A stretch of 63,429 nt of DNA, filler included, from Folioceros fuciformis (lineage: Eukaryota): the NCBI GenBank assembly GCA_049999805.1. It is 4 parts of 4 records of this genome, joined end to end, with 100 filler letters (N's around TTAATTAATTAA, not from the genome) between each part and the next. Parts side by side here need not be neighbours in the genome. Positions count along the whole stretch, not along the records: positions 28,925 to 52,937 come from JBNGIO010005395.1; 3 more parts are not named here. One strand, 5' to 3'. Positions within the stretch are counted from its first letter, which is position 1, and the number at the start of each line of letters is the position of its first letter. Positions 30,304-52,937 of the stretch are shown here, in pieces. The notes below the pieces were generated by a model that saw nothing but the letters and a program-made list of their open reading frames with translations, made no database searches and was not told where the DNA came from. A program made the position numbers and the translations under genes.

Positions 30304-31576
30304 TCATGTTGCTTTGGCCACAGTGGAAGGATGCTGCATGAGCTTCTTGAGGACGACGCTCCGCGCTCGGTGTGTGCTCTGCTCGCACGTGCTGACGTGG
30401 TCCGCAAGGCTCTCCAGCTCCGCGATGAACCTGTCCTGCTTGTGCTTGATCTGGCCCACAGCGGTGACCAGGGCGAAGGGCTCCTCCCGCTCCTGCGCGA
30501 ACCGGACGTTGCGGGCCATGGAGTTGATCTCGTTCTGGAGTTGGTTCACCAGAGCCTTGATGTTGTCTAGGTCACGGATGGCGATGTAGGTGCCCCAGTC
30601 CGCCGAGTCCACCACGCTGCGGCTGGCGGCCAGTTCGTCCTCGTACTTGGTCCACAGGGACTTGAACCAGCGGCCCATGGACTCCATGGGGAGGGCGGAC
30701 AAGGTGGAAATCCCTGCGACGATGGTTGGGGAGACCAGCACCGCGGCCACCACGGCGCAGATGAGCACCGCCGCGCAGGTGGCGGCCAGGATGATGGTGG
30801 AAACCTTCATCCATCCGCGCACGTGCTTCAGCTTCTTGTCCAGCTTCTTCTTCTTGCGTTGGAGCTTGGTCTGCATCGCCTGATGCTGCGTGTAAACCGC
30901 TTGAAACTGCTGGTAGAATTCTTCGGAAAACGGGTTGGCAGCCTGCACCAGGGGTCATTGGCAAATCAAGGCAAAGCATGGCAAAGCGAAGCAGCTCAGT
31001 GACTTTGACTAGTCAAGTCTGAATCACACGGCAAACAAAAAAGATACCATTCCATGCATGTAATTCAATTCAATGTCATCGGAACCATGGAATCAGCACC
31101 TCCATGAAGTTGGTGAGCTCCTTCAGCACACGGTGGCATTGCTCCTCGGTAGGATCACCGGATTCCGGCATCAAGTTGATGGCCACCTCAATAATCATCT
31201 GGTTGTCGCGGGCCTGCTTAATGCACTTGTCCAAAACGTGGCAGAAGTCCAGCACAGCCAGACTGCTGTCGAAGTACTCTGTCACCAGCTTCAGCAGGTG
31301 CTTGTCCGCCCATACGTCCTCCTTGTACTCCAGGATAACCTTCATAACCTCCTGATCCACCTCCAGAAGTGTGCTGGTCACATCCTTCAATGACTCGAAA
31401 GTCAATCCTGTGGAATCCGCTCCTCTCGCCACCGAGTTGATGGCTTTCCCTGTCCTATTCTTGAGCTCTTCATCGAAGTTCTTGACATCAGGATCGTCGC
31501 GGCACAGCTCTTCGAACTCTGACAGATCAAGAGGGAGCACATCGCTGCTCCTCGATTTGCTGAACGTTTTCCCCAT
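30304..31576 (-). CDS. DUF677/UPF0496 (At14a-like) protein, 371 aa, 2 exons (31576-31100, 30942-30304)
   Basis: MGKTFSKS (N-myristoylation-type start), ELCRDDPDVKNFD, LVTEYFDSSLAVLDFC, NPFSEEFYQQF, hydrophobic hairpin VSTIILAATCAAVLICAVVAAVLV, GTYIAIRDLDNIKALV, RARSVVLKKL. Phase-0 GT-AG intron. Confidence 0.92.
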
Positions 31577-32412
31577 GATCCTTTCCACACTGGACGTACC
31601 AAATAACGCCTGACAGTGTAGTGTGCCACTTGGTGAAAAGCAGGAGCGAATCGGATACCAAACTCACTCCGTCACAAGAGATACATCTCATTCACCGCAA
31701 CTCTGCAACACATGTCAAGCACTAATCCTGGCGTTCCAAGCTTCACTAGTACTACCATGAGCGGCCTCGCCAACCTTACCATGTACTGCGCTTGTACATG
31801 TCCCCCACATTGTGTTTCATATTCAAATTCCACTGGCCACACACATTATGCAAAGACCGCGATCTTCTTGGGGAAACGCTCTGCAACTTCCGATTCAGTC
31901 GGACATGGATGCTGATCAGGAGGCTAAGATCTCACTTCCCATATGCTCTCCCAGCCTGCACAGCCTTTCCTGTACTTGAAGACTTGGTGGATTTGCAATT
32001 ACGGCCATGATGTCCTACATGCAGGCAAGTAAAGCAGACTGTATTGCATCACATCAAATATTCCACATTCCAGAGCTCAAACTCCTGCTACCTACATGCA
32101 GTCACAGGCACTTAGCCTAGCCCCTGCTTCTCCTTCCGCTGCTACATGCTTCCAAGGCCCTGGCGTCCTCGTCCCCGTCCCCATCCAGCCCTCTGCTGAC
32201 CTCACGCGTCGGGGTGGATTTCTCTTATCAACAGCTACGATGCTGTCAGTCCAATGTCCTGCAGCCGCACACTAACTAGTTCAACGTTCGACGACTGAAT
32301 TCGCAGCTAGGAAGTGGATTGAAATGCGGGTGGGGACTGTACTGAATTCCATCGGATGGATCAACCTGATCATGCAAACCAGCCATAGCCGGTGGGAAGC
32401 TACTGGGAACAA

Positions 32413-32466
32413 AGTCACGGTGTTGGAGCCTCTTTGCAGAGTCACGGTGTTGGAGCCTCTTTGCAG
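32413..32466. repeat. 27-bp tandem duplication
   Basis: agtcacggtgttggagcctctttgcag occurs twice. Confidence 0.9.
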
Positions 32467-32815: not shown

Positions 32816-33378
32816 TAAAGTCAAAGGATATTCTAATTCGATTCTGTGTCGGGGCTGTCAACAAGGTTTTATGATCTATCTGTTAGAGATAACTTTAATA
32901 TTATTCTAAGTGTGGCCTCTAAACCCTAAACCCTAAAATATATATTTATATTTATATTTTAAAACTTGTTATCTAATTTTTTACTAATTGTTTCAAGCCA
33001 ACTATCTAATAATAGAATCACAAAACGAGGAGATAAGTTCATATTAAGTAAACATGGAGCTGTCGTAAAAGGATTAATTAAAATTATGTATCGGGACTCG
33101 GTCCCAACACCGCCTTGCAAATCCTGCAAACGACAATGTGGAAGGAAGGAAAGGAAGGAAGGCATACACTCCGAGGATGTTCCACCAACCGATTCTGTTC
33201 CCTGGCACAGCAGGATGCCAGTGGGCCCAAGAATGTAGCGTCGGCAAGCACCCTTCCGCAACTTGGCTGCCTGTAGATTATAACCAAGGAGAAGGTGCGT
33301 GGAACGACGTTTCCTCGGAAGGGTAAAAATGTACACTCGCTCGGGAATGGCAAGCCCAGAAAGAAGACAACCCGGGTT

Positions 33379-33637
33379 GTTCCAGGACTGCCAGCTCTGG
33401 AGCTTGGAGCCTGAGGTGATGATTTATCGGCTAGAGTGCTGGTGGCCCATGGTAATTCAGTCCATGAGCTTCCAGGAGGAGGCACTGTGTTAGTGTAGGC
33501 CTGCAGGACAGCCCCGGATACGGAGATACGGGTGCAGGAAATCGAACAGTGTTCGATCAAACAGCATCCTGTCGACTACGGTAGCAAGTCTGCAGGGGCG
33601 TGTTGGAGGCGTTGAAGAACATCTTCTCCGTGCCAAG
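33379..33637 (+). pseudogene. Degenerate duplicate of the 5' end of the DUF677 gene at 34332
   Basis: Colinear nucleotide similarity to 34259-34533 (tccaggact.ccagctctgg, ttcagtccatga, gatcaaaca, agcaagtctg, ttggaggc, atcttctccgtgcc), with indels and stops. Confidence 0.85.
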
Positions 33638-34331
33638 TGCTGCCCGAGGAAAGCACTATTCACTGATCCTCGAGTGGACGAATACGGATGGATGTCCTTC
33701 GCACGCACACGATTGCTGCCTACAGACGCAACAATGGAGCTGTTTGTACGCCACTTTCCTCATAGTACCTTCTCCTTGTCCAAAGTTTTTACACGCACTG
33801 AGGTTACGGAGTCTTATCCCGCCTCTGCTAAACGATGGCACAGACAGCAATGTCCAAGGAAATCGCACACCCCGAGGTTTGTTTCACCAAACGACTGCAG
33901 ATTTTTCGTGGCCGTGCGGCCTGAGCCCCATCTCACTGGTACTGGGTGGACGTCAGTGGGCCCTTTCACTGGGCATGATCTAGAGAAAGCACCCCTACGC
34001 AACTCGGCTGCCTACAGATTAATTTAGGGCCATGGCTTACCACAGGGAGCTGAGGGAGCTGCTTTCTTTCGGGCTCCGCCCGCACGAAGAGGAAGGTGGT
34101 TGGAAAGAGGCAAGATTGAAAGGGTGAGAACATGTACACTCGGGGGGCTCCCAAGCACAAAGACAACCAGCAAACCAACTGTCTACCATTTGTAGTGTAG
34201 GCTCGAGACTTTCCATGACAATGCTCTGGGGCGGAAGTGGCATGGCCCTTGTGCCCGTGTTCCAGGACTACCAGCTCTGGAACTTCGAGGTCACAATCCC
34301 TCGTTTAGAGTGCTGCTGCCTCTGATTGCCC

Positions 34332-35991
34332 ATGGCTGCTGCTAGAGCTAGTGGACTCGCGCGGTTTCAGTCCATGAACTTGCAAGAGGAGTACAAGAAG
34401 GCCTGCCGGACCAGCTCCTACGTCGAACTGTGGATGAAGGCTCGGTGCCAGATCAAACAACAGCCTCTCGACTCTGGCAGCAAGTCTGTGGGAGACGCGT
34501 TGGAGGCCCTGAGCAATATCTTCTCCGTGCCCAACAAAAAGCACTTGGTCAAGTTCCTGTCGCTTAAAGACGATTCCACAAGGGGCGACTGCGCCAGCAG
34601 CAGGACCGCGGACTCCGACAAGATCGATATCATCGCTGCTAACCTCTTGGACCCTGATCAGGTGAGGCAGAGTCGGACGTATCTGGTCCAGGTCTGGATC
34701 TGTGTTAGGGCAAAGAGTGAGTTTTTGTGACGCATTTCCCAGCCTGTTGGAATTTGTCGCAGGCAGAAGTAGATGCGGTGCTGAGAGACATGGACAACCT
34801 GTGGACCACCTCGGCCTCCTTCTTCAAGCTGGTTCTGGACTACTTTGACAACAGCCTGAAAGCATCAGATCTGTGTGGCGAGCTTCTCAAAAGTGTGGCG
34901 CAAGCCCGAGAAAACAACAGGATTGTGGAAAGTGCCATGAGCATCATTCACTTCGAGAGCACCTTAGATCCCGCCGATCGCGACACCTCGCAGGCGGCTG
35001 ACACTAGAAATTCCGATACCGACGACTCCATCTTCTTATCCGAGGACTCCAGCACCAGCCGCTCTTCCCGCAGCAGCAGCTCATCCAAAGCTGCTGATGG
35101 TGACCACCCGACTGATGTAGACGACGAGATTTCCTTCGCTGTCGGCTCCCACAGCCGTCACAAACGCAGTTACTTGCTCAGATCCGTCCACCAGGAGCTT
35201 CACTACTACGTCGAAGCAGAGAACCCCTTCTCCGACATGGAACAGTTCCAACCAGTGTTAGGAGGATTCGCTGACATGCAATGTCGTCTCGACAGGAAGA
35301 AGAGGAAACTGGCTACGAGGATGCGCATTTGCAAAGGAATGGTAAACATCTGTTCTGTTTTGCTGGTTCCTACATGTGAAGCAGTAGGGGTGTTCAGGCC
35401 AACATAGTAGGATGAAAAGGGCCGGACTGACTTCGTTGGGTCTCCCATCAAGACCTGTCTACAGAAATGCCTCTATAACAGCAACATGCAAGCGATTACG
35501 GTTCAGGTATGGCATGATCCCTGATATCAATGGAGGAACGTCTTCGTGTGGACCCGTTTCCATGTTCACCCATCCTGACAAAACGTCCACGGCAGCTTGA
35601 CGCAGCATCCAAAGGCACATACGTGGTGACCCAAGACCTCGACACCATCAAAAGGCTCGTCGCCCGACTCCGAAACGAAGTCGAACATACCAAAGGTAGC
35701 ATAAGGTTTTGGAATCGCCAGCGTGATGACCAGAATCCCGTTAATGTACGAGCCTCTTCAACCTTGAGATTAAGCTAGATATACTACCATCTGTATCCGG
35801 TACCTGCTTGGTCGTTGACCCAGTACGCGTGTGCTCGCTTGCAGGTCATGGTCGGCCATCTGACGAAGAACCAAGCCATCTGCTCCCAGCAACTGGATGA
35901 TCTTGAACAGCACATTTACCTATGCTTCATGACTGTCAACAAAGCTCGCACCCTCATGGTTCAGAAAATTCTTTCGAAGGTAGCGCCATAG
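34332..35991 (+). CDS. DUF677/UPF0496 protein (At3g19330-type), ~415 aa, 5 exons (34332-34661, 34763-35341, 35465-35506, 35596-35745, 35845-35991)
   Basis: [99 protein letters not shown]. All junctions GT-AG, phase 0. The 42-nt third exon is inferred. Confidence 0.85.
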
Positions 35992-36167
35992 CCTTGCGTT
36001 TCACCATGCCAACAGTACGACACCATGTTTACGTCCAACTGTAGAATCTGTACTGTTTAAACTTACAAAATTGAATACATGCTGACCAAAGCAGACTTGA
36101 ACCGATCCTTTCAGTATGCTGAATGAATGCGTTGCTCCCTCCAAACCAAAGCACCTTTTCTCATACA

Positions 36168-37736
36168 TCAAGACATTTGTACACTTGTTTTTGGTTTTTC
36201 CAACCAGCTTGGCCGCCTTGCTCCGTAGAAATAGTGGGCGGCAATCTGACAGAGCTGATCTGAAGCCATGAACCCTGATTACGGCACACCAGACGTTTGG
36301 CAGTCATTAAGAGTTGTCAAATCCAGATGCTGCGCAAATTTTGTCGGTCGCTTGAACCATGAGGGAAAGGAACAAACCAGCAAAAACTTGTATTGCGCAA
36401 CACGTTGCTCACCTTCAATGTGGTGAACTATCTTTCCCGACTTGATCAGTAAAACAACTGGGGTCTTTTCTATCTTCATTGCCCCAACCAGATCCACCTC
36501 GGTCGCAGCATCCAATTTAACAGCCTGAAATGCCCAACACGGTTCATTATCTAGGTGGAGCACATCAGAAACCATGCACTGAGAAATGGAACCTTGTTCC
36601 CCACGTACCCGAACTGGTACTCGTGTCCAAATAGTATCCACCGTCTTCTCCACCTCCTTCAACATTTGCCATCCCACACGACCTCTGGAGAACAGCAGGA
36701 CAAGTCACGACGTTAGTGCTCACACCATAAGTGCTCGACACTCGAAACAGCTTCACAGACAAATGACAAGGGGACTGTACCCTGTCCCATATCGTTCATA
36801 CACATAAACCACCACAGGACTCATGTTATCGAACACAGTGGGTTCCCATTCGGCAGCTGTTATGTCTCTGACGAATCCTTTCTCATAATCCTCGTCCCAA
36901 TTCAGGTCAAGCTCGTCATCACTGTCACTATCGTCTTCCCCGCCCTCTGTCCTATCCCTGGTTACCTTCACTTTTTTCTCGTCAAAGAACTCCGACACTC
37001 TGAATCCCCAGCCAGTCTCCCCCTCAGCAGGCCACGTAGGGTCGTCTTCATCCACAATGAGAGGATAGTCGTCGTCTTCGTCCTCGTCATAGTCGGGATC
37101 ACTGGCACGTAACCTTTCCAGCTCCTTCTCAATCCTTGCGTGCAGTGCTTCATATTGCGCACGGTTAGACGAGTTGTAACGTGCATGCCTTGTCTGGCCT
37201 CCCCCAGTGGAAGCATTCCCCACGTCTTCTTCATCATCCGCTCCAGTTGAGGGCTCATTCAATATGGGCAGGCCTCCAGCACTGGCCCCTGCCACAGCAG
37301 AGGAAGCACCAACATCTTCTACCTTCTGGTTCTGGGCAGCCTCTGAGCTGGACGTTGACGAGTCCTGTGCAGTATCAGACTCCAGTTCACGAGATGCATC
37401 CTTCGCTTGCTCCTCAGGAACTTTAACCTTCCTGGGCCGTCCTCTCCCTCTTTTCTTCTCAACATTTGGTGCAATCTCTTGACCTGCGGTGGAACATCTT
37501 ATGCCTGTTGCCACCCTCGCAGCCGTCCAGTTACCGGTCAATGGGAATGGACGATCAATCCCAGCCCCTGCAAAACAGAACCAACTCAGAACAGCAACCC
37601 TCAAAGGGAATATGAAAAGGAGCTACGAGAGGCAAACCATACAACGGATTGCCGAATGTCCATCCTCCACTGCATCCAATGACGATGACCTTCGAGCAGA
37701 CGCCACCGCTCCAAACCATCGGACCGCCGCTGCCAT
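36168..37736 (-). CDS. MRL7: MRL7/RCB-NCP family thioredoxin-like-fold plastid protein (no CxxC), about 5 exons
   Basis: Transit-peptide-like start MAAAVRWFGAVASARRSSS, acidic tracts, ETGWGF, VRDITAAEWEPTVFDNMSPVVV, EVEKTVDTIW, AVKLDAATEVDLVGAMKI, IKSGKIV, QIAAHYFYGARRP. Confidence 0.85.
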
Positions 37737-37754
37737 GAACTCCTCGAAAATGAG

Positions 37755-37770
37755 TTAAACCCTAAACCCT
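37755..37770. promoter_or_regulatory. Telo-box-like (aaacccta) repeat just upstream of the MRL7 start codon
   Basis: taaaccctaaaccct lies ~20 bp from the ATG. A similar tract occurs at ~32920-32938. Confidence 0.45.
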
Positions 37771-38144
37771 CAGCTGGGCTTCGTTAGCTTTCAGCTCCAG
37801 GCACCCTATTTCGTTTGCAGTGATCAGCTGTCTTGACCATGAGTGTGTCCAGATTACTGAACCGTAGCCATGTGCATCCCGTGTTAGCCTACAAGGTGAA
37901 CAGCTTTGATGCCATCTCCAAGCTCTCATTTTCTAGTTGAGTGCTGCGTGATGTTGACGTTACATTGTCCTAGGCCTCACGTTCATCCAAAGCTGCGGAT
38001 GCTTGTTTTCCGCCCGGTAGACGACGAGGCTTCCTCGCTTGTGTAATGGCACAGCCGTCACTTCATTCTCTGACCCAGCCACTAGGGAAGCGGGATGGGA
38101 GGGGTGGACCTCACTCCGTTTCGCCCACCTAGCCACTACAGGGT

Positions 38145-38700
38145 TTTGCTTCTATAACCCCAGACTGACATCGTCCACTGTTCAGGATGAAGACAGCTCG
38201 TCTTGTATGGATTTGGATGTCTGTGTACTCACCCTGACAAAATGACGTCGACAGCTTGGAGCCTGCAGGATCCAAAGACACTTCTTACGTGCTGACCCAG
38301 GACGCGCACACGATTAAAAGACTAGTTGCACGACTCCGAGACTGATTCAAAAAGACTTTGAATCGCCAACGATGACGACAACCCAGGCCATGCAACTTGA
38401 GCCCCAAGGTCCCCCTAAATGTATTAGCTGACTGTTTGTTTGACCTGAGATTGTGCTCACTTGACGGTCATGTTCGACCATCTAACAAAGAATCAGGCAG
38501 TCAGCTTCCCAACAGGTGAATGCCCTTAGACAGTGCCTTCACCTGTACTTCATGAGTGTCAACAAAGCCCGGACGCTCATGGCGCAGTAAACACTGCCGG
38601 AGGCAGCTCCTCAACCTTGCCCGTAACCATGCCGGCAGTACACACTCCTGTGATACACTTGTAGAAACAAAGGTCACTGTCCTGTTAAAGCTTACAAACT
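38145..38700 (+). pseudogene. Degenerate duplicate of the 3' part (exons 3-5, introns, 3' UTR) of the DUF677 gene at 34332
   Basis: Colinear with ~35470-36070: cctgacaaaa..cagctt, tacgtg.tgaccca, cgactccga, gaatcgcca, ggtcatg.tcg.ccatct, ttcatga.tgtcaacaaagc, ctgtt.aa.cttacaaa. Contains frameshifts and stops. Confidence 0.85.
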
Positions 38701-41700
38701 TCACCCGACATATCCGCTGACGAAAGCAAAAATGTCTTGAGCAGCAAGCTGCTGACATCCAATGAGGTGGACCGTTCAGCTACATCAGGCAGCTCTGAAG
38801 GGGGACGTGGTTGGGTTGCTTTCGCATCAGCAACGTTGGATGGTTTTTTGGTGAATTTGATCGGAGGACAATGGACAGAAGTGGAAGAAGCCTCTACGCT
38901 ACACACCCAATCAATTCTGATACAGGAGATAATTTTGCAAGATAATCATGTTACTCGTAACAGGTAGATAACGCATGAAAGAAATGATTCGAGAGTGTCA
39001 AGCTAATCAACGAACCAGGAGGCAAGCCGAGCAGGAACTTGTCAGAGTGCGGATGGGTGGGGACGATATGCTGGATGTACGAGGCTCGTCGTCGCCTTGA
39101 ATCCTTCCTGTAACGACTGTGCTTCCCAAGAATCTTCCGGCATCTCCTAGAATACACCGGAAATTACACGGCCCCAGGAAACGGATAACGGATAACGGAG
39201 AATGGATGTCCATACCCCTTCAAGGGTGCAGCTTCCACAGTCGGTTTCAACGTGGTGCGGGGTCCATGGCGGGATTCCAACGAATTAAACGCTACCACGT
39301 GCAATACAGACATCAGCAGGGTACAAGGGGTGACGTTCAACAAGGTGAAGTGAAAAAAAGTCGGGTGTTGTGGGTTGGATAGAAGTGTAGCAGTGTCTGC
39401 CGGCCATTGCTTTGCGGAATGGCCGGAGATGTCGATAAGGGCGGTAGGCGAAAGCAAGGTGGCAGCCACAGGAGCTACCGAGACCGCACGTACAGATAAA
39501 TCCGTGAGAGTCATGTGCAGAGTGGAGTAGTGTTGTATGTGTTTGCAGACTGTAAAAAGAAGACTCCCTCTTTTATGCGATTCCCCCGGCCACAAAGAAA
39601 GGGAGTAAATTCTGGATAAAGTATTTTGGCGATTCTCCCTGGGGCTGCCAATGCCATGAAGAAATGGGGTCGTTCTGAAAAAGCTAGGCCCTCTCTCAGC
39701 TGGCGGGGGGGCGGACATGCCGCAGACTGTGGCAAAGCGAAGCAAAGAGGAGCCTCTCATATCTCTTCCTTTGAGGAGGTTCCCTTCCCTGGATGTGCAC
39801 TCATTCATCGCACTTGCATGATGTTACAGTACATATACACTAGACAGTCTAGACTGGAGCTGGAGTGAGTGGATGTGAGGTAAAGGAGGGATACATATAC
39901 ATACAGTATGCATACCCGGGGCGGCGGGGCCAGCTACAGCTGGTGATGAAGCCAGAAGCGACGGTTGTTGGAACTTGGGTCACACCAAATGAGCCGCTGA
40001 TGAGTGACAAAGACAGAATGTAAGATGCAGCTGGCACCTCTGTACAGACATCGAATTCAATTGGACAGAGGCTGCAGTTAATACACCAGCAGCTATGAGC
40101 CGTGCGCTTTTTGGCCACCACTCTACACTGCCTTCACTCTTCTGACAAGCTCACGGCCTGTGCACACGCACGACGCACTGCCTTGATGCTCCACTCGAGT
40201 CACTATAATACGTAAACATGATCGGAGCTGTACATTTTTATACATCCCTAGGCACTGCCTGCACCACTGCACCAGGAAGAAGATGCAGCAGCAGGCGTCA
40301 CGGTTGGCGAAGAGCCTCCAGCTGGACAGTTTGTGTGTACAGTGTGAGAGACATATCTGTCCATCGCAGTTCCCAAGAATCACATGTTCACAACAATGAT
40401 AAGCCGCGAGCGAGAGGCTGCACATCACATCCATGAAAGCCAGATGAACCCCTCCACTCCACACAAAGCCCTCCAATGAGAACCGCCCACTTGGCAGATG
40501 CCTCCGACCTCGTCCTTGGCCGGTGATCAGCAGTTCTCATCAGCCGGCTGTTTGTGTGTAACGGTGCGTACAGTACTCTGTCCCCCCACCCCCTGTACAG
40601 TAACTCGAGTCCTAAAACACGGCCGGCCATAACATAACCCCACCTGCCATGTTCTGGACCACAGTACGCCTCCCTTGCCCCCTGCAACCTGCAAAGCACA
40701 GAAACCTAATCCTCAACAGCTGCCTGCAGGCGCAGCACGGCGCAGCCCTGCCCATGTGTCTGTCTATGAGCTTCGGGATGCGTCCATGGTGCAGCAGCGG
40801 GGGAATGGCGCGCAACCTGAGATTTTTCTTCTCCTTTCCCGGCACGACAAGGATGGAAGGCCGAGCGGCATGGGAAGTCGGGCTTGGTCCACAGCATCCC
40901 TCCAATGAGCGACACATTTCTCATCATTTGTACACATTTCTTATGCTCACCAACCCCCGCCGCTGCACGGCTGAGCTGAGCTGAGCTCTCTTCCCTTTCA
41001 AATCCCGGTTCCCGACGCGTCTTGCTCTTGCTGCGGCTTCCTGCTTCATCCTGGCGGGCCCGCACCTCCGGCCAGCGTCGTCTCAACGGCTGTTATCTTA
41101 AATCCCGTCCGAGCAACATGTGAGTGATGATGCAAGTGCCAGAGTCCGTTGTGTATGTTCTCTGTTCATGGTGACACGAAGGGACAAGGTCGTCCAATCC
41201 GCGGGATCCTTTTGATCCCGCCTGACGCCATCGCGCTTCGCATAACAAGTAAACAAAGGAAGAAAGGGCTGCAGCGTGCTGGGGTCGCAGACTCTCATGA
41301 GACGCACGGTACGCACCACTTGGAAGAGAGTCCCCGTCCTCGGGAAGGCGAGGGGATGGGAAGGGAGGGAAGGATGGTGGGGATAGAATATATTTGCATG
41401 TACATACATACAGACGTACATACATACATACATGGTGATGCCATATGGTTCGGGCATTTACGCAAGCTATATCGGGCTTCCCATTTTAGAGGCCAAAGCA
41501 TTGACTTCCGTCCCAATGCCATCAAGTACCACATGAGCTGGAGGCTGGGCCCGGGCCGGGTAGCGTATTTATCCGGCCCGACCCGGGCAGCTTGTGTCCG
41601 GGCGATTGCACGCTTTACATTGTGGCTCGTGTATGCCGTGAAAAATTGGGATGAGATGTGACAACCTGGGTTTAGGCATTAATGTCTCCGGAAATTGACC

Positions 41701-42007
41701 GCCTCGGGTGCCGGTTGCTTGGAGCAGCGACCGCGCTGGTCGTTGGGTCGCGGTCGGGCCGATCCGTGGATCCCGTCCAAGTCTCGCCGTTCCGTTCACC
41801 CGGGCCACGTCCCCGTCCCCGTCCCCGCTAGGATTGTATCGGGATACGGCGGGATTGGGAGCCTGGAGGCCCGATCCGTATCCGGTACCGGCCACGAGGT
41901 GGGCGAGGCGGTCAGCGTAACGAAACGGGCGTCCTCTCACCCGGTCATTATTACGGGGGTCGGGTCCCGTTCCGTGGGGAGTGGTGGAAGTGGGCAGCGC
42001 AGTCCGC

Positions 42008-42101
42008 GGCTGTTGCTGCTGCGGCTGCGGTTTGCTGTTGCTGCTGTTGGGCTGCGGCTGCTTCGGATGCTGCTGTTGGGTTGCTGCTGCTGCTGTTGCT
42101 G
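42008..42101. repeat. Degenerate (CTG/TTG)n trinucleotide tract
   Basis: gctgttgctgctgcggctgc...gctgctgctgctgttgctg. Confidence 0.75.
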
Positions 42102-43064
42102 AGCTTGCCGCTGATGATATAGCCTTTGCTTTGCATCTTCGTGTGATGAGAGACGAATCAGATGATACAAGCCGCGCAGAGACGAAGCCAAGTGGAGGTT
42201 TTGAGCAATGAGAGGCAGCCACGTGATACTTCCGACAGGCACCGGATCGCGGCTCGCTTCTCTTGATCGCTGTTCAGATTTCCATTTTTAGTGCACAGCT
42301 GAAATCCAGAGGGAGGAGATTGAGAAAAGCTGGCATGAGGACCATCCGGGGCCTCTCGATCGCTCTGCTCTGATCTGCTCTCCTCTGCTCTTCCCCTTCT
42401 CTCTCTTTCTTGGATCCCAAGCTCGGTGCCGTCTGCGAGGTCGGAGGACNNNNNNNNNNNNNNNNNNNNNNNNNNNNNNNNNNNNNNNNNNNNNNNNNNN
42501 NNNNNNNNNNNNNNNNNNNNNNNNNNNNNNNNNNNNNNNNNNNNNNNNNGCGGGAGGAGGTAGAGGAAGAGGATGAGAAAGTAGCTGACTTCGGGGTAGT
42601 GGAGGAGGAAGTAGCTGACTTGGGTAGAAGTTTCTGGGTAGGAAAGAGTCAGGCAGTCGGGTCCGCTGGCAGGTTGTCTCTGTGAGCCTGCTGCCTGCCA
42701 TGGTCGGGACAGCGGGGGCCAATTCCGGGGAAGGCTACCTCCGCAGCGCAAGCGGGCGCCGCTGGTGTTGCGTGGGCGGGAGGTGTGCGGGGACTAGTAG
42801 TTAGACGGCGCTTGTGCCAATTCATTGCGGCGGCTTTGCCTTTGCCTTGGTAATTCTGGCGCTGGCCTCGGTTTGAGGAATTTGGGGTGTTGGAGCTGGG
42901 ATTTGCGTGGAGGCTTGTGGGCGCCATGTTGTTGTGGGCGACCGGGAGGAATGTGAGATCGGGCTCGGAATTCGGGCAGGTGTCGCCTTCGTCGTCGTAG
43001 AAGTTGTGCAGGAGAGCAGGATTCAGGGAGGGAGGAAGGGGAGTGGGCTCGCTAGGCCGGAGCG

Positions 43065-46000
43065 ATGGTGTCTTGGAATAATCTGTGTCGCTCTCCGGCG
43101 ACGGCCAGGTTGAATCCGGCCCTGCAGCAGTATTACGCCGAGGAGACAGAGGAATTCTACACCAATCTCGCCAATGGGTTGGATAACCTGGTTGTGACCA
43201 TGGGGGCGGATAGCGTGCGGGTGGAGTGGCTTGAGCTTGCGGTTTCCTTTCTGCGGTCCACGCATTCTGAGGTGCACGTTCTGGTGGACAAGCTCATCCA
43301 CTACGCGTCTCCGAGTATCAAGGTGAGCTTGAGTGGGTCGCCCACTTGGCCTTGTCTTGTTGGGTTTGTGTGTATTGCTGCATCACAATGCTTGCTGATT
43401 CCTCCTCTTCTTCTGCCGGGTTGAGCTGTTGCAGCCCGAGTGGATGGAGGCCTACATGGAGGAAAGCGGGAGGCTGCTGGAAGTCTGCGAGAAGCTCAGG
43501 CCAGGGATTGAGCGAATTGAGAGATATGAGATGTGTGTGGAGCTGGCTTCCCGTGCGCTCTCCAATCTGGATCTGGATGCCATCCAGGCTGACCTTATGC
43601 GATGCCTCACTCGGGAAGCAGCCAGCAGCAGGAGCATGAAGATGACCCCTGAGGAGGACCCGCCCTTGAGGAGGGCTCCTCCGAGCAGGGAGTCTTTCGA
43701 GTTTCCTGTCACAGCCACCTCACCCATGGACACTTCTCCGGTCATGCCCAGCTCTCCTCTCATGGTGCTTGATGTTTGCAAGAAGGCAGACAAACTGATT
43801 CAGTCCATTGAGTCCATGAATCTGGGCAGCAGTGCTGATTCCTCAGCTGGACAAGGTGGAGAGCCTGAAGGTTCCCTGGCTCGTGATGCAGTGTCTTTGA
43901 GGTCACAGTTCATAGCGCTTGATCAGCACACTGGGGGGGATGAGCAGCTCGATCCCTGGCAGTATGGCATGGAAGATTTGGAGTCGCTGGTGGCGGAGGC
44001 GGAGAAGCTTTTGTACATGAGGAGACCTGGCAGCTTGACTGAACCGCCGTCTCCCCCTCCTGGCCTGTTTGATGGGCCCGTTCCTGTGCTCCCACGACCC
44101 TCAGATACTGGCAGCCCCTTGCGTCCCTTCAAGATGGATTCCAACTTCAAGATAGACATCTCTCCTTCCAAGTCTTCTGACAGCTCCAGCTCACCTCATA
44201 GCAGTAGGCGTCGATCAAGCGAATCCAAGTCTGGATCCCGAAAGCCGCCTATCTATCCTCATTCTGACAGACAACTGACGGCCGCTACTAACAGTGATGC
44301 GGAGGCGACAAGCAACAGGCACAGCAGCCGAAATCTCGCTGGTGAAGCAGAACCCACCAGCAGCAGGCATAGCAGACAGATGTCGTGTGACTCTGTCTCT
44401 TCGGTGAGTACCACGTTTGAGCAGATTTCAGCTCCCATCATCTCTCAGTTTGAGGCCAGCTTGACTGCTCTTCGTGAATGCAAGGAGGAGATATCCAGGG
44501 AATGGACGTCTAGTAGAACAATGGAGACCCAGGAGTTGATTGCGGATGGAGATGGTGATGGCTCTTCCAGGAGTGGCATATCTGCAAGCTTTAACAAGTA
44601 TTTTAAAAGCCGCCCGAGTATGGAGTCAGGCAGGACGAGTAGTAGCCGAAGGAGGTTGTCGACAGAAGGGAGTAAGCTTGCACAGTTTCTTGAAACCCTG
44701 ACCAGTGACAATGAAGAGGACGAGGTACCGGGGATAGGGGTCAGAAGAAGTTCTTCAGACCTGAGTGATGCGCACTTGCGGTCAGAGAAACCGATGCAGA
44801 CCATGAGCCCCATAACGGAGAGGGAAGATGATGCTGCAACCGAGGTTTTTGCGATGCGGGGTAGTGTGGCGGGAGTAAGCGGTAGTGGAGATGCGGGTGT
44901 GCATGATGAGCCTTCAGTGCAGGCAGAGGTATCAGAGGAGAGAGACTTGCTGAAGGTTGAACCGGAGAACACCCGTCAATCATTGAAGGGACTGGCAGGA
45001 CAAGATCCTCCGAGGGTCCCATCTCGAAGTGCTCCATATGTGGCGAGTAGTGGAGAGCAGGTTGCTCCGGGGTCCTCAGAGCATTCAGAGGTGCCAGACA
45101 AGAGGAACTCGTGGAGGGCTAGACCTAACAGAAGTTTTCAGGCAGAGAAAGGACCAATACTAGATTCTCCAAGCTTTCTAGTCCAAGATGCTTTGGCAGT
45201 GGTGGACAGTGGGGAGCTGGTTGCTCACGACACACCAGCTCAGACGAAGCCTCCAGAACAAGGAGACTGGACGAGGGGCAGCAGGGCTGACAGAAATCGT
45301 CAGGAAGTGAAAGGGACAGGACCTGACTCTCCAAGGTATGAAGGCCTGGCAGCGGGTAAAGTAATAGGTGGGGAGCTAGTTGGTCGTGAGCCACCACAGG
45401 CACAGGCAGAGGTACCAGCAGAAAAGAAAGTTTCCCTGATGGATAGAACACAGCAAACAGGCGAAAGAGCGGATTCTCCCAGGCGGAATGTTAAGGGTCT
45501 CTTCTACATGCACAATTCAGAATGGAAGGACCGTGTGGAACCTCCATCCAATGCTGAACAGCAGCAAGCTGAGTCTTCTCGGAGTAAGAAGGGACAGGAT
45601 GCCAGGTCGACAAGCCCTCGAAGACGAATAAGCCAGAGTCTGGATGAGATTGCAATCGACAGGCTCCACGCCGAGATGAAACCTTTTCTTAGCAGGCCTG
45701 CTAGAGGGAACGATACTGAGGCTAGCACTATTAACCAGGCTCCTCTCATGCTGGAGGAAGATACTGCTCGCTTTGGACGGCAGGAGCAGGGATATACCAC
45801 CGCCACAAGCAGTACCGGGAGTGGTGGACGTATGCACAGAAGAAGTGGAAGTCTTGATGCAGCAACGCGCGCGACAGGGAAGGGGACATGGCAGAATGAC
45901 AGGACGGAAGCCATACTGACGGCTTATTTGACTAGGAGGAAAGCTGAGAGTCGGCTTCTTTCTCTCAACTCTGAGATCACAGAGGAGAGCCATTCATCTT

Positions 46001-48120
46001 CTGCAGGAGCTAGTCCAAGTCGACGGGACACTCGAAGTACAGCGAGGGTGAAAAGGTTGGATGAGCCTGAGAGTGCTTCACTGTCCGACATCTTCCCAGA
46101 AGTAGTCGCTGATTTCAGGAGAAACTCACGGGGTTTAGTAACTGGGGAATCACGGCCTCTGGAGCAAGCTGGTGCGTCATCGGAAGCCCGTGTTGAAGAT
46201 GTGAGCAGGGAGTCTTCGACGGACCTGAGGAGTAAGAGCTCAGAAGCGGTCAGTGTTTGGCGAGCGGCTCAATTGTCTACTGATGACTCTGCCAATGATG
46301 CCATACATGCTCGACAAGAGTCAGCCAAGCACCTGAGACCAAGCGGGAGAGTGGAGCCTCAGCACTTGTCAAATGTGGTGGCGAAGTTTGAATCCTTCTT
46401 TGATGCAGAGTTTGATGCAAAGCATGACATCAAGGGTGCAGAGAAACACGTGCCGAAGAACTTGTCAACAGATTTTGCACCCAAGATGAAGGTGTACGAG
46501 AATCCTCTGCACAGGCCTGAGCCTGGGGGACCCTTGCCGGCTCCGCTGATGAAGCGCAGGATTAGCAGGGATATCCGCCGCAGCATGGCATCCGCATCTC
46601 CCTCTCGATTTTGGAGAATCGAATCCCCTGCTCGTCTCTGGAGGAGGAGTACCTCGCCTGGTCATTTTCGAGGTAGAGGTATGCAGGCAAGCCCTGGTCG
46701 ACAGCGACAGTCATTTGCATCTTCCGCCTCCCCCCACAGACTGAGCCTGAATTTCTTCAGCCATATGAAGCATTGGATTAGTCATCACGGAGAGCATGAT
46801 GATGAGTATGTCGGGGATGATACAGCACCCGATAACCTGAGAAGATCCAAGTCTGCCAGCAACTCCAAGGCAAGTCCCCATCATCGTTATGCTCTGATGA
46901 AAAGCCCTGGTAGAATGAGCTTGAATCTTTTCACGTTCCAAAAGGGTGCAACATCCTTTGTGAAGAATTTCGGGTCTGCGGCCATGAAGCAGTGTGCACA
47001 TCCCACTCGCGGCAGTTCCAAGTGGACCGGCCTCGGAGGTGTGTTCCTGGCCACTAAGGCGTCTACAGGGGTCGTTTCAAGCTTCCTTCTGTGGATTTTG
47101 GCAAGAAGTGATGCTGATGTGCACCCGAGCTTACTGCACGCGGACGTGCAGTACACCATTCGCAAGATAGAAAATCACTGGTCAAGCTCACTCAGCAAGT
47201 TGCAGGAAAGAGTGTCCAGGTTCGATGTGGAGCAGAGGCAAACTGTGTCTAACAGGAAAGGGGCAGATGCAGGTGGAATGGAGCCTAGCAGGCATAGTCA
47301 TTCTTCTTCTGATGAGAGGAAAGGCAAGAAACGGTTTAGCCTGGATCTCAAGCCTCGTCCACGCAAGTCTGCTGATCACGGTGACAAGAGGCCTACGGAG
47401 CAGGGCAATCCCAGGCGGTCCATAAAGATGGAGAGACCTGCGTCTTTTGATCACGGGAGCACGGAGCCAGTAGAAGGATCAGAGAAGCCGTCCAAGCCTA
47501 GAATCAGCCCCTGCTTCCACATCCAAGAGCTCAAGGAAGTGCACAAATGCGTGGAAGAGCTTCACGTGGGGCTTGAATTCCTTTTCTCAGCTTGCCTATC
47601 TGCCTTAGGGAAAAATTCAGCGACGCTTGACCAACTTCCGCAGGAGAAGATCATCAGAGAATGCGTACCCACAGAGAACCCGTCGAATTCGAGCAGCAGG
47701 AGGAAGCTATTCGACACGGAACATAAAGACGGACAAGTTCAGGGACACGGAACTTCAAGCCCAACCCTCCCCATGGAAGCGAAGAACAGAAACGTGGGTG
47801 AGGACGGCGAGAAAGGTGCGACCTCGGACCCCACTTACTCGGAATTGAAGTCGCACAGAAGAAAGACTACCGAAGGCAGATCCCAACCTGTTTCCTACGC
47901 TGGATCCAGTTTCTCCTTCGAGTTGGACAATGTGAATAAGGAACAGGTGAAGGCAGTGGAGGCCATTTTTGAAGACTGGAGATCAGGCAAGATGGCTGAG
48001 ACGGTGCGCAGATTGCATCAGAACATGGAAGAGTTTCGGTCAAGCCTGAAAACCGTCTCCCGGGAGGTGGATGATCTCTGTGCAGAGGTGCAGAGCGGCA
48101 GGAAAACGTTAGGAGAGTAG
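43065..48120 (+). CDS. Giant BPS1/DUF793-like protein, ~1647 aa, 2 exons (43065-43322, 43435-48120), domain split by a >1000-aa S/R/E/P-rich insert
   Basis: N-half VRVEWLELAVSFLRSTHSEV..EWMEAYMEESGRLLEVCEKL. C-half GVFLATKASTGVVSSFLLWIL, HWSSSLSKLQERV, ELKEVHKCVEEL, LKTVSREVDDLCAEVQSGRKTL. 4.7 kb stop-free exon; phase-0 gtgag...gcag intron. Confidence 0.85.
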
Positions 48121-49601
48121 GTTCTGCTCTGGCGTGAATTTCGACTCTCTCATGAATTTGCACATGGTCGATGTCCTGCAGTCTGCAAGGAACATGCCAT
48201 AGAGCACATGTTGTAACATAGCTTTACTTGTGTGTGCCGACAAATGCTCGTCACCCTTCAAGTTGGATCTTGATCAATGCTTAACAGGACTCGGACTTGA
48301 CTCTTCTGATGAGAGTGCAGAAGGTTCCCGTTATTGGCTTGATCAACACATCTGCCCAAGTGCATGGTTTCACGTGCTAGGTCGGCGGGTGTGTCTGATT
48401 CCTTGATCTAAAATCAGGAAGGTTTGGGCGCCCACAATAAGACTAGTAGACGAATCATCTTTGTTTATAAATAGCTCCCATGGCCGTGCACTCCACTGCC
48501 TGCACTGTGAAGCCCAGTGTCCGCCTACCATTCTCTAAGCGTGGCCCCTCTTCCGTTGTGGCAACAGCGTGGCGTCCATATCTGGCCATAAATCAGCAGC
48601 ATGCGTGGCTCACGCTCTTGTACACAGACCAGTCGCAACTTTGTACAGGTCCTTGGGTTGCTATTTAGATGGGGTCTGCTATAATAGGGTTCCACAGCTA
48701 AGCATCAGGCAATCCACGCAGGAAAACCAAGTCTTGTGGGCTGGCCGACAAATAAAATGGTCTCGCTGGCCCTCCCCAGATTGGCCAGATGTGGCTTGTT
48801 GCCATATTCTGCTTGCTAGTACGACATATTATGTATATACAACAAGAAGCAGCGGCCTGCACCGTGTTCTACTCGTTAGTCATCTGTGCACTGAGAGGTC
48901 TCCATCCAGAGGTCATCTACTGTCGTGCTCGTCCCTGAAGCACGACAGTATATTCTGGTGATTTTTGATGGCCTGAGTGGAGAGAGATTTTGTGGAGGCA
49001 CCAACCGGGGCTAGACCATGGTGGCGTGAGCATATTGTATTTGTTAATGTTGTACCTGTTCATGATGTGCTTACAGACTATTCGGGTCCATCTCAACTGT
49101 CTGCTGCCAGGCTACTGGTGAGTGTAGATCGTCCAATAGGCAAATGAGGACTTAGGCGGTTTCACAGTCGACTGCTGGTGCATGTGGGTAAACAATCTTG
49201 AACAGGTTGCTTGATTCTGCGCTCTCGTGGTTTTGCTGAGGATTTTCCGGTCGCCGTCCTGCTTATCATCTGCTCTTGGAACATGTTGCTTCTTTGTGAT
49301 GTCGATCACCTCTCCATGAAATCGGTAGCTGGGTTGATGCACCTCACTATCTTCTTTGGGCTTCATTTCTGAACATCATACTTGTCAGCCTGAGGCCAGG
49401 GCCTTTCTTTCCTTCCTTCCTTCATGCCTCATCTGGATGGATGGATGGATGTGTGTCAGTCCTAGCTGCTGGTGACTGATCTGGTTCGTGGATCGCTTGT
49501 ATTCCGCGTTGAGAAGCAGCGTAGAGATTTAGCTGGACAAGGAGCTAGCAGAGGTCAGAGCTTTAAGAACGTTGGAGACAGGGCTAGTGAGTGAGTGCAC
49601 C

Positions 49602-50933
49602 ATGTCAGCCGCCCCGAGCTCTTCATTCTTTTCCAGCTTAGGTGCTGCTTTGAAGCTTCCCCTGTCTCCTGCCAGCAACATCTTCTCTGGATCAAGCAGG
49701 CGTGGAATCAGCGGGATACAGAATTTTGATGTCAACCTCACCGATAGGCTGGAGGGCCTGAAGCCGTCCTCCGAGACATATTTCCTGTCATTACCATGGC
49801 TGTCTAAGGGAATGTCCATCGTCCTCGCTTCGCACTCGGCCGTAGAGAGCCTGATTCCAGACCTCGAGCAGTCTCCTCTGACGAAACGAGACGAGAGGTG
49901 GGTGTTGGACTTCCTGGACGAGAGTGCCAAGCTGCTGGACGTGTGCAACGGGTTGCGGGAGGGTGTGGCTCAGCTGGAAGAATGTCAGATGCTGGTGCAT
50001 CTGGTGCTGCACAACCTGAACGTGAACTCTGCAGCCGCTTTCGCGGAGTCCCAGGTGCAGAAGGCGAGGAAAGCGGTGCTGGATTTCCAGGCTCTCACAG
50101 AGAGACCTGCGGGGGACGACGACCAGGACTTGTCGTGGCCAGAGAGGACAAGCAGCTCTGGGAGCTCTGGAAGGCTTTTCTCGCTGGAGAGGAAGAGATC
50201 TAACAGCTGGGGGATATCCAAGGACAAGGCCGCTCTGCAAAGGCTGCAAAGCAAGTCCAGCAATGGCAGCAGCCACGGAGGGAGCTCTAACGGGAGCAGC
50301 TTGTCGGAGCTCCGGGAAAACGGAAGCGGGGCCAAGTCGGTGAAGAAGTTAGCGGATCAGATACCGGAGATCGAGCTGCTCAAGAGCATGACGGAGAAAT
50401 TCCTCCCTCCCAAGGGGGTTGACAGCAGCAAGGGAAGGAACGCCTTCATAGCCGGGATCTACGCAGCGAAGGTGACCACCGTGTGCGTGCTGGGCGTGGT
50501 GTATGTGACCCTCACCAGCAAAGCTGGCGGAGACGGTCTGAGCCTGCTCATGAGCTGCTCATCCCAGATCAGCCGTCAATTCATGTGGGCAGCGCCTCTT
50601 CTGGATTTGCTGGACAGGGTGGCCATGGAGATCGGATGGCAGAGAAAGCAGACGAAATTGACGTCTTTCGTCGCGGAGCTGGTGAGGATAGACACCAGCA
50701 TGAGCCGGCTGCTGGACATGATCCAAGCTGCTCGAGCCGGGAGAGTGTTCCCTGTGCCTGCTAAATTGGAGGATGAAATGCGGGAGGAACTGACCGTTTT
50801 GAAGCAGCACTTGGAGGATTTCGAGCACGGGCTTAACAACCTGGAGGAGCAAGTGAATGAATTGTTCCGCATGTTGATTGCCAGCAGGACGCAGCTACTG
50901 GATGTGTTGGGCAGCTCCAAAGGGCTCTTCTGA
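49602..50933 (+). CDS. BPS1/ROH1-like (DUF793) protein, 443 aa, intronless CDS
   Basis: FLSLPWLSKGMSIVLASH, RWVLDFLDESAKLLDVCNGLREGV, FIAGIYAAKVTTVCVLGVV, FMWAAPLLDL, LEEQVNELFRMLIASRTQLLDVL. Confidence 0.9.
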   Translation: MSAAPSSSFFSSLGAALKLPLSPASNIFSGSSRRGISGIQNFDVNLTDRLEGLKPSSETYFLSLPWLSKGMSIVLASHSAVESLIPDLEQSPLTKRDERWVLDFLDESAKLLDVCNGLREGVAQLEECQMLVHLVLHNLNVNSAAAFAESQVQKARKAVLDFQALTERPAGDDDQDLSWPERTSSSGSSGRLFSLERKRSNSWGISKDKAALQRLQSKSSNGSSHGGSSNGSSLSELRENGSGAKSVKKLADQIPEIELLKSMTEKFLPPKGVDSSKGRNAFIAGIYAAKVTTVCVLGVVYVTLTSKAGGDGLSLLMSCSSQISRQFMWAAPLLDLLDRVAMEIGWQRKQTKLTSFVAELVRIDTSMSRLLDMIQAARAGRVFPVPAKLEDEMREELTVLKQHLEDFEHGLNNLEEQVNELFRMLIASRTQLLDVLGSSKGLF

Positions 50934-52212
50934 AACTGTGGCAAGCAGAAGCAGACATAAGTAGACACTAGCTGCGTCCTACAAACCAGTGGCTTCCCTG
51001 GATATGTTTCCAGTCCTAAGGGCTGGATGAAGCACAAAGCCACAGGAAACATTGCCTTGCTCTGTGTGATCAGGTCTGGCAGGGTGAAAGCAGAGGAGCC
51101 AAGGACGACGAGCATTCCAAAGACCAACAGCCATTGCTGCAGGGAGAACCAAGTCCAGTAATTCCGTCTGTACATTACTTTAGAGGATTGGAGTTTTACC
51201 GGGAGGGATACCCAAGACAAAGAGAGAATCCTTGTTGATAAGTGTGTTTGCAAATAGTAAGCTGCTTATACGAGGCTTTACGGAGGCTCTCTCCAGCTTT
51301 CTCCTTGGAATGTACTTGAAAACTCTTGAGAACGTGATGCAGGTCACTAGAGCAATGCGTTAGTATAGTTGCAACTGGCGTTTCCTGGGGTCGCTTACTC
51401 GTAGTTGCCACACAGCTTATGCCTCCTTTCTCACCTATCATAGGCACAGGCACAGGTTCTCATGTCCCGCCTTTTACAAGTCATCAGGGTCAGCTACTGG
51501 ATTCCGTACTGAGGAAATAGATGTCACGATATTCGGTACTGCGTCCTGACACATTGAACCCGATCCTTCGAAAAAACTTACGAAAAGGCAAGAGGCCAGC
51601 AACATCCCAACCTGCTGAAAGACAACGTGCTTCCGTGTGTCCTGCACGTGGGAAACTTCCACGGAAATGTTTTACTCCGCTTTGGAGTGTGGAGAGCCTA
51701 CAGCAGCGCATCTCACAGGGATTTAACAATACAAAGAGGTACTAGCGTACCCACAATGTGCTGGACCAGGGAAGGGAAGGCTTGATGTGTGGAAGTGCCA
51801 CCGTAAGTTGGTGTTGAGCCTGAGAACCCTCTTCCCTGGAAGACCTTGGACAAACGTGTTTGAGATAAGGGTATGCATTTTGGTTCGTGTTTTTCATGTG
51901 GTATGTGACTTCTAGTGTAACTCGTATGAATTTCAGAGCAATGCGATCTTGAAGTGTGAGAGATTGCCCTGGGCGACAGAGTAAGAACGTTGGTAGAATA
52001 AGGTGGAATAATTTCTGGAAAGTTAAAAAAAACAAGCGGACATAGGTAGTCTCAGTGACGTGAGAAAGGGATCGTGCGAGTGAGTAATTGACTGCATTGT
52101 TGCTTCTGAGCAGCAGCAAACAGTGTTCTGGAGCTGGTGTGGTATCCGGGCAGGTGCCGTGCACACACAGAACGAGCTTGTCGATTTTCAACTGCGTAAC
52201 CACATAGCATAT

Positions 52213-52937
52213 TCATAAGAGAGTGAGGGAGCTGGAATTCAAGCTATCCAGAACATTGATCCGACTAGTAATCAAGGCCCTGAACAAGTAGTTGATACGG
52301 TGCTCCAAGGACGTCGATCCTGTCTCCAATTCCGTGGCTGATGTGCGCAAAATCTCCACTACCTTGCCGAGATCGTTCACCTGCTCCTGCTTGAGGGGGA
52401 AGGGTGCCCTGCTGGTGAGCAAAGAATCCAAGAAGAGGAACGCCTTCCTGACCGCAGTATCCACGGAGTCCAGCTGCTGAAGAGGGTAAGAGGCGACCTG
52501 GCCCTGCGGCTGTCCGTGTCCTCCTTCACCTTATGCTGCAGGGTGAGAAACGCTTGGGACCATAGATGGCCTTGGCCGACGGTTTTCGCGGCCGGAAGGA
52601 GATGGCGGCCACGAGCAAGGCGCACACGAAAATTGTCATCACCTTGGCGACGTAGGCGGCGAGCAGGAAATCCTGGCCCTCCCGGACAGTCTCCTAGTGC
52701 GGCTTGGATGCGACAACCTTCTCCTCCATGCTCCGGAGGATGGAGCCGTAACTCTCGAGCCAGGCCTTGTTATTGCGGTGCGAGAGGGATCCGGGCCAGG
52801 GAGACAGCTCGTCCCGCCGCGCCACCGCCTCCTTGCAATCCACCAGCGCGCTCCTTGCGTGGCGGGACTGCACCTCCGTACCACCGACATCATGCGGGCC
52901 GGACCCTAACGCATGCAATGCAAGATGCAGCAGGCGC
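52213..52937 (-). pseudogene. BPS1/ROH1-like (DUF793) pseudogene, C-terminal half; 5' part lost in the gap
   Basis: LRSMEEKVV, DFLLAAYVAKVMTIFVCALLVAAIS, HLWSQAFLTLQHKV, LDSVDTAVRK, LEHRINYLFRALITSRINVLD. In-frame TAG at 52694-52696 and two frameshifts (~52580, ~52475). Confidence 0.82.

Follow-up and report, generated by a model that had tools for sequence, protein, structure and literature searches.

Why do genes of two plant protein families that carry separate Pfam names lie side by side in 23 kb of the genome of Folioceros fuciformis (NCBI GenBank assembly GCA_049999805.1)? The families are DUF677/UPF0496 (PF05055), which includes Arabidopsis AT14A and AFL1, and ROH1-like (PF05633, formerly DUF793), which includes Arabidopsis ROH1A-D, B1L and BPS1; the related Pfam entry PF03087 is named BPS1 and was formerly DUF241. 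Both DUF677 (AT14A/AFL1) and ROH1/BPS1 proteins are specific to plants; they are regulators, as yet little understood, with links to the drought response, to secretion and to growth signals that act over long distances. The locus spans positions 30.3-52.9 kb of the stretch of DNA that was analysed, 63,429 nucleotides in all (hereafter the window), whose parts need not be neighbours in the genome; the part from 28,925 to 52,937 is record JBNGIO010005395.1. An earlier note, made from the sequence alone, had seen in it a candidate system, either an ancient cluster of one clan or a co-functional module. The reading proposed here, to which we assign a probability of about 0.6, is that of a neighbourhood in which paralogues of a single plant-specific superfamily of helical proteins arise and decay (birth-and-death evolution), with no operon-like system.

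Seven pieces of one superfamily

Four DUF677 pieces (gene A, gene B and two fragments) and three ROH1-like pieces (a giant gene, an ordinary gene called roh466 and a pseudogene) lie within the 23 kb, and each of the seven family matches, taken singly, is far beyond chance (Table 1). Birth-and-death turnover, which the earlier note had suspected, is visible in that four of the seven are no longer intact.

On profile comparison, the two families are homologous. The ROH1-like alignment A1 was matched to the DUF677 alignment A2 by hhalign with a probability of 97% (E = 1.1e-10) over 183 collinear columns, and exon 1 of gene A also passes the ROH1-like cut-off (34.6 bits against a Pfam gathering score of 21.5 for PF05633; those of PF05055 and PF03087 are 29.1 and 23.5 bits). 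This hhalign result and the cross-family Pfam match bear out the placing of DUF677 and BPS1/DUF793 in one clan, which the earlier note had given as known. In a tree of 13 rows and 380 of 638 columns, from which the fragmentary proteins P0003-P0007 were left out, the split between DUF677 and ROH1-like sequences scored 100/100, as did the pairing of roh466 with the foreign protein P0008, and no clade of two window genes was supported. The giant gene and gene B form long branches whose exact placement is unsure. Since no window genes are supported sisters, the locus is not a young array, in line with the earlier remark that its members are too divergent for a recent tandem array. Judged by these comparisons, the window members are old lineages, except the pseudogene, copied from a gene outside the locus, and the two fragments, copied from gene B, which are later copies.

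Pfam was run on 12 proteins from long open reading frames (ORFs) of the window, and two hidden Markov models (HMMs) of our own were added: a DUF677 model from three sequences including gene A, and a ROH1-like model from alignment A1, which includes roh466. The matches of gene A and roh466 to these models are thus by construction. Over 1605 six-frame ORFs of at least 25 amino acids, the models found two DUF677 loci and three ROH1-like loci, and no others. Contigs of sequencing runs were aligned to the window from 33000 onward; X1 is a DNA run of the same organism, X3 an RNA-like run of the same organism, and X4 (organism B) and X10 are RNA-like runs of related organisms. Contigs of X3, X4 and X10 are treated as transcript-derived because they are without GT-AG introns that the DNA run X1 retains: X3 contigs show eight GT..AG or CT..AC joints and X1 none. 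Coverage by X3 is missing in 3 of 30 bins (33000-33664, 38320-38984 and 39650-40314), and contig depths are unsuited to ranking expression.

Gene A is an intact DUF677 gene. Its two exons, separated by a single GT-AG phase-0 intron of 157 nucleotides (31099..30943), match PF05055 at E = 3e-31 (exon 1, 109 bits) and E = 5.2e-51 (exon 2, 174 bits) and together span profile positions 2-335. The hydropathy profile reveals a central hydrophobic segment at residues 202-245, and the frame continues uninterrupted through the C-terminal helices. Among named proteins, the nearest homologues of the window genes belong to the lycophyte Diphasiastrum complanatum (45-53% identity); for gene A this is P0001 (53% over 327 residues), a DUF677 protein whose AlphaFold 2 (AF2) model was poor, with a predicted local distance difference test (pLDDT) score of 57.7 and a predicted template modelling (pTM) score of 0.33, and was left unused.

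Gene B is spliced but not intact, and is either a transcribed pseudogene or the source of a truncated product. It matches PF05055 at E = 2e-13 (50.4 bits), with DUF677 matches in all four exons (the 3' exons match our own HMM at E = 6.6e-10 and 8.3e-5), and carries an insert rich in acidic residues and serine. Its three GT..AG joints are present in RNA-like contigs and in none of the DNA run X1, and all junctions are in frame. We regard it as not intact because the spliced frame is interrupted in exon 2 by an in-frame TAG TAG at 35405-35410, just past the start of the hydrophobic segment; downstream of these stops, the frame is open and homologous to the last exon. Of the two intact DUF677 genes that the earlier note had counted, gene A therefore stands and gene B does not. 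Contigs of organisms B and C have two letters fewer at 35407, and one of these also has four fewer at 34974.

Both DUF677 pseudo-fragments of the earlier note were recovered as copies of gene B; they were missed by the protein HMMs and detected by DNA comparison (blastn and tblastn) only. The second aligns with gene B by blastn in three stretches (74% over 159 nucleotides, E = 2e-22; 72% over 116, E = 1.5e-11; 73% over 82, E = 1.7e-4), and by tblastn with the gene B C-terminus (E = 2e-14), with several stop codons in the aligned translation. A Pfam run on 122 short ORFs, comprising 116 of the 162 of at least 45 amino acids from 31.7-43.0 kb and six from 48.5-52.9 kb, gave no DUF677, ROH1-like or BPS1 match at E <= 0.05; this set took in pieces of the pseudogene, the 3' exons of gene B and ORFs over fragment 2. 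One contig of X4 joins the exon 3 donor of gene B at 35745 to 38467, the start of the exon-4 copy in fragment 2. The joint omits 2721 nucleotides that hold the MRL7-like gene (Table 1) and ends GT..CG; it could be alternative splicing onto a duplicated exon, a rearrangement in organism B or an alignment ambiguity.

On the ROH1-like side, the earlier note had named two intact genes, one of them giant, and both stand. The ordinary one, roh466, matches PF05633 at E = 4.4e-30 (105.4 bits, profile positions 33-384 of 384) and, secondarily, PF03087 BPS1 at E = 1.4e-10 (41.8 bits); no other window gene was seen to match PF03087. It is 61% identical to P0008 over the full length and has in common with it a serine-rich loop insert of about 85 residues. 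An X4 contig spans 49205-51316 without a joint. The AF2 model of roh466 predicts an all-helical bundle (pLDDT 70, pTM 0.70) in which residues 1-36 and 173-252 are disordered, the latter with pLDDT below 50. Foldseek returned no match to this model in the PDB at E <= 0.001. In a VIA-align comparison, the best Z score was 11, to designed and talin-type four-helix bundles; this is below the informative level for helical bundles, and no functional inference was drawn from it. Between 49625 and 51619, the depth of X1 rises to 27-40, against a usual value of about 13, and many sites show two letter states at about equal depth, both of which also occur in the RNA-like run X3. Given this two- to threefold depth and the two letter states, the same organism seems to carry either a divergent allele of roh466 or a second, closely similar copy.

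The third ROH1-like piece is the BPS1-like pseudogene that the earlier note had reported, and it is indeed broken. Its pieces, in four frames, match our own HMM at E = 5e-18, 2e-12, 7e-9 and 9e-4; the whole was matched to the ROH1-like alignment by hhalign with a probability of 97.8 (E = 6.8e-13), and the largest piece scored 14.2 bits against PF05633 (E = 0.023). Its N-terminal part of about 145 residues is missing: tblastn with P0009-P0012 found nothing of residues 1-144. The upstream end is cut by a pattern of 44 N, 12 bases and 44 N at 52938-53037. Identical patterns occur at 28825-28924 and 58334-58433, and they are unlike the 100-N scaffold gaps. A second copy, about 93% identical, lies elsewhere in the same organism (X1 depths 12.1 and 11.2). 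The window copy is the frameshifted one because the other is longer by one letter at 52482 and by 16 at 52580. The likeness of the two copies ends about 120 nucleotides past the stop codon (about 52092), where a poly-A trace, sought as a sign of retroposition, was not evident. The C-terminal piece is nearer to P0009-P0011 (39-46%) than to roh466 (31%).

A giant ROH1-like gene

The most novel element of the locus is the giant, a member of a known family that is roughly fourfold longer than usual. It is a real two-exon gene, transcribed and genus-restricted. The sequence offers a start codon (ATG) at 43065, and the intron, with its donor at 43323 and its acceptor at 43434, is absent from the contigs of all three RNA-like runs examined (X3, X4 and X10). 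Contigs of 5398, 5857 and 5849 nucleotides cover the 4.7-kb exon, with no joint listed inside it. The X3 contig has no differences from the window over 43433-48511, that of X4 has 496 differences and 56 gap letters over 5075 nucleotides (about 89% alike), and that of X10 has 546 differences and 84 gap letters over 5179 nucleotides (about 88% alike).

The 1573-codon ORF at 43399-48120 gave no Pfam match at E <= 0.1, and the family assignment rests for that reason on profile and BLAST comparisons. Residues 14-58 of this ORF were matched to alignment A1 by hhalign with a probability of 94.8 (E = 5e-8), and the upstream ORF, exon 1, matches the preceding part of the ROH1-like profile (E = 4.8e-4). 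Over 105 residues, the N-terminus of the spliced product shares 35% identity with Diphasiastrum P0011 (69.7 bits). At the other end, the C-terminal 392 residues match the ROH1 HMM weakly, in two collinear stretches whose score was reached by none of 300 shuffles. The protein is laid out as a ROH1-like N-terminal core (about residues 30-150), some 1,100 residues of disorder-type insert, a hydrophobic helix at 1289-1309, and weakly conserved C-terminal helices.

The insert is rich in serine (14%), arginine and glutamate, and has one hydrophobic helix only; self-BLAST found no internal repeats, and GC content is flat across codon positions (0.55/0.51/0.545). No relatives of the giant were found at E <= 0.001 in a word-indexed search of proteins of 865-2753 amino acids, and phmmer with the first 1200 residues of exon 2 gave no matches at E <= 0.001 among 1.84 billion representative proteins. 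In the atlas, the insert had no usable match. It occupies the loop that holds the insert of about 85 residues in roh466 and P0008 and that is disordered in the AF2 model of roh466. The giant would then have kept the bundle-forming N- and C-terminal helices, while the disordered loop between helices would have expanded into a serine- and arginine-rich linker some 1,100 residues long. Basophilic kinase motifs of the form R[RK]x[ST] are enriched in the giant (11, against 3.9 +/- 1.9 in 500 shuffles), and the loop of the giant may be a phospho-regulated docking region. No such enrichment holds for strict 14-3-3 mode I and II motifs (0 or 1 found). According to one report, binding to 14-3-3 lambda lies in the N-terminal half of Arabidopsis B1L, with a possible phosphoserine suggested at position 213, whose mutation failed to abolish binding (PMC6607965).

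Linkage, neighbours and competing readings

All DUF677 pieces lie to the left of a 100-N scaffold gap at 42450-42549 and all ROH1-like pieces to its right, so that the mixing of the two families depends on one scaffold join. No contig bridging this gap was among those listed: X1 ends at 42449 and resumes at 42787, and the X4 contig of the giant starts at 42656. If the join were wrong, the family groups would not be true neighbours, and this assembly artefact would also fit a left contig that ends in high-copy, low-complexity DNA (X1 depth 607 at 40980-41644, loose ends at 42009-42113). The short contigs, with gaps at 4552, 11027, 42450 and 59681, may instead point to local scaffolding by mate pairs or long reads, and each family group stands irrespective of the join; a false join is quite unlikely.

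The rough chance of finding any DUF677/ROH1-like pair within five genes is about 2%, which is notable but not compelling; it was computed with family sizes borrowed from other species (about 6 DUF677 genes, about 12 ROH1-like loci and about 30,000 genes). Published counts are six DUF677 genes in Selaginella (PMC13471261) and at least 12 DUF793 proteins in Arabidopsis (PMC6607965). A chance adjacency of a few percent, together with families that are homologous and collinear and members that are deeply diverged rather than recent copies of one another, would suit an ancient relic, in which the locus keeps the tandem arrangement from which DUF677 and ROH1-like/BPS1 diverged, linked since early land plants. 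However, the three named Diphasiastrum homologues bear locus tags of the series O6H91_05G, 21G and 23G and so lie on chromosomes 05, 21 and 23, the link spans a gap that adjoins repetitive DNA, and the pseudogene is a comparatively recent arrival, as its 93% identity to a second copy and the short reach of that likeness indicate. A relic is therefore unlikely.

The co-functional module of the earlier note, in which DUF677 and ROH1-like proteins would act jointly, for example as a membrane anchor and an exocyst regulator, and would be kept together by selection, fares worse. Gene B, the MRL7-like gene, the giant and roh466 each have their own transcript contigs, with no shared transcript; orientations along the locus are mixed (-, +, -, +, +, -), an unrelated gene sits among the DUF677 pieces, and the proportion of dead or damaged pieces speaks against selective maintenance of a set, as do the dispersed Diphasiastrum homologues and the link across the gap. 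Two studies connect both families in Arabidopsis with processes at membranes and in secretion or stress (PMC7840542; PMC13471261), which is circumstantial, and birth-and-death turnover would resemble that of signalling loci. Among the literature matches listed, as far as their excerpts go, no paper carried terms of both families, and none treated DUF677 and DUF793/DUF241 as relatives or dealt with their linkage. A joint module is, in our view, very improbable.

Under the preferred reading, each group would have arisen as copies were made repeatedly, both locally and at dispersed sites, and then decayed, and the adjacency of the two groups would be a coincidence or the leftover of an old duplication, without joint function. 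As to what the surviving genes might do, an account of Arabidopsis ROH1 proteins states that they bind EXO70A1, C1 and C2 and are presumed to repress secretion (PMC7840542), which agrees with the binding of EXO70A1 that the earlier note had mentioned. By homology, roh466 and the giant could be adaptors, in the cytoplasm or at the membrane periphery, that bind EXO70 subunits of the exocyst and hold back secretion, and gene A could be a membrane-anchored protein of the AT14A/AFL1 type. A bolder combination, in which the locus is the trace of the tandem duplication that split DUF677 from ROH1-like/BPS1 and the giant a functional phospho-regulated scaffold coupling exocyst regulation to signalling, is a long shot.

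Several points weigh against the preferred reading or its parts. Five loci and two fragments of one superfamily in 23 kb exceed random placement, and the two families may be adjacent for a non-random reason. The Diphasiastrum comparison is weak, as it involves three named proteins from word-indexed searches, which may have missed paralogues. Gene A lies outside the span to which contigs were mapped, the C-terminal homology of the giant is weak (9.1 bits; hhalign E = 0.054), and its open reading frame is established in the window gene alone of the three species. Finally, the functions are drawn from angiosperm homologues at about 20-50% identity.

The one recognisable interloper, which the earlier note had called MRL7, is a spliced gene among the DUF677 pieces, as described, and the name is provisional. 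An X3 contig of 1938 nucleotides has joints at 36273/36412, 36523/36608, 36684/36781 and 37566/37642. A thioredoxin match (E = 0.0054) was weak and below the cut-off, and the best score in the atlas (0.89) went to an unnamed streptophyte cluster. The last exon of gene B (+, 35845-35991) overlaps the 3' end of the MRL7-like transcript (-, 35845-36273), and one X3 contig spans from 35845 across all MRL7-like exons. Within 30304-50933, GC content at third codon positions varies strongly from gene to gene (0.86 in gene A, 0.74 in roh466, 0.64 in gene B, 0.545 in the giant and 0.50 in an MRL7-like exon).

Between the MRL7-like gene and the gap, 40980-42309 is covered by RNA-like contigs of three species and may be an unannotated low-complexity gene or untranslated region. 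It contains a high-copy, microsatellite-like repeat: the depth of 607 given above for X1 is a sum and compares with about 13 elsewhere, and reads are cut at 41341-41377. Transposable-element blocks had been reported on both sides of the locus, and degraded copia-type remnants were found on each side in window coordinates. The second lies just past the truncated end of the ROH1-like pseudogene in these coordinates, in another part of the window.

Table 1. Positions, strands and structure of the features described, in window coordinates
Feature	Position	Strand	Structure or match
Gene A, intact DUF677 gene, 371 amino acids	30304..31576	-	exons 31576..31100 and 30942..30307; stop codon 30306..30304
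DUF677 pseudo-fragment 1	33555..33634	+	80% over 81 nucleotides with gene B exon 1 (34451-34531), blastn, E = 2.9e-14
Gene B, divergent DUF677 gene	34332..35991	+	four exons: 34332-34661, 34763-35506, 35596-35745, 35845-35991
MRL7-like interloper gene, spliced	35845..38175	-	four CT..AC (= GT..AG) introns; labelled MRL7 in the earlier note
DUF677 pseudo-fragment 2	37983..38620	+	exons 2-4 of gene B, copied and decayed; lies at the MRL7-like 5' end
Q/A/S-rich ORF, 234 codons	41569-42273	-	no Pfam match
100-N scaffold gap within the locus	42450..42549	.	DUF677 pieces to the left, ROH1-like pieces to the right
Giant ROH1-like gene, 1647 amino acids	43065..48120	+	exon 1 43065-43322; intron 43323-43434 (112 nucleotides, GT-AG); exon 2 43435-48120
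roh466, ordinary ROH1-like/BPS1-type gene, 443 amino acids	49602..50933	+	coding region intronless
ROH1-like pseudogene	52216..52937	-	four frames; residues ~145-352 of a canonical member
Ty1/copia remnant 1, degraded	17929-19556		gag-pre-integrase, integrase core and SH3-like domains
Ty1/copia remnant 2, degraded	54075-55304		SH3-like domain and RVT_2 (E = 2.5e-35)
ORF with PHD-finger match	56873-57256		E = 6.8e-11; downstream of the copia remnant
100-N scaffold gaps	4552, 11027, 42450, 59681		

Comparison with known families and arrays

The locus matters in three respects. It displays the homology of the two families directly; it offers a compact view of turnover, in which live genes, a gene freshly hit by stops, a frameshifted copy and old fragments stand together; and it indicates that the central loop of ROH1-like proteins tolerates an insert of about 1,100 residues in a gene that is still transcribed in three species. 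This tolerance makes the loop a candidate regulatory surface that deserves tests in model plants. Should the linkage of the families turn out to be conserved, it would show when and where they originated; otherwise, the locus is an ordinary neighbourhood of paralogues.

Set against the ROH1-like family, roh466 is a regular member, which matches the whole profile, has the usual intronless coding region and is predicted to fold as an all-helical bundle; the conserved motifs of the core are also present in the giant and in the pseudogene. The giant departs from the family in its length, 1647 amino acids against 333-462 in the members retrieved, and in having no Pfam match of its own. Sizes of 184-358 amino acids appear for legume and Arabidopsis BPS1 proteins in a further study (PMC5793164). 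The serine-rich loop insert of roh466 and P0008 is lacking in P0009-P0013. The binding of EXO70 and 14-3-3 proteins is a feature of the Arabidopsis ROH1 and B1L proteins.

Similarly, gene A resembles the DUF677 family in its profile match (positions 2-335) and central hydrophobic segment, and gene B in the matches of its four exons; the acidic, serine-rich insert and the in-frame double stop set gene B apart. Arabidopsis chromosome 3 carries a run of DUF677 genes. A cotton survey of the family reports no tandem duplicates in that plant (PMC13471261), unlike the situation here, where gene B gave two local partial copies. More generally, the locus resembles the tandem or proximal arrays of paralogues known in plants, with paralogues and decayed copies within tens of kilobases and retrotransposon remnants on the flanks. 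It differs from them in that two Pfam families stand side by side, and in that its members diverged anciently and are not near-identical repeats.

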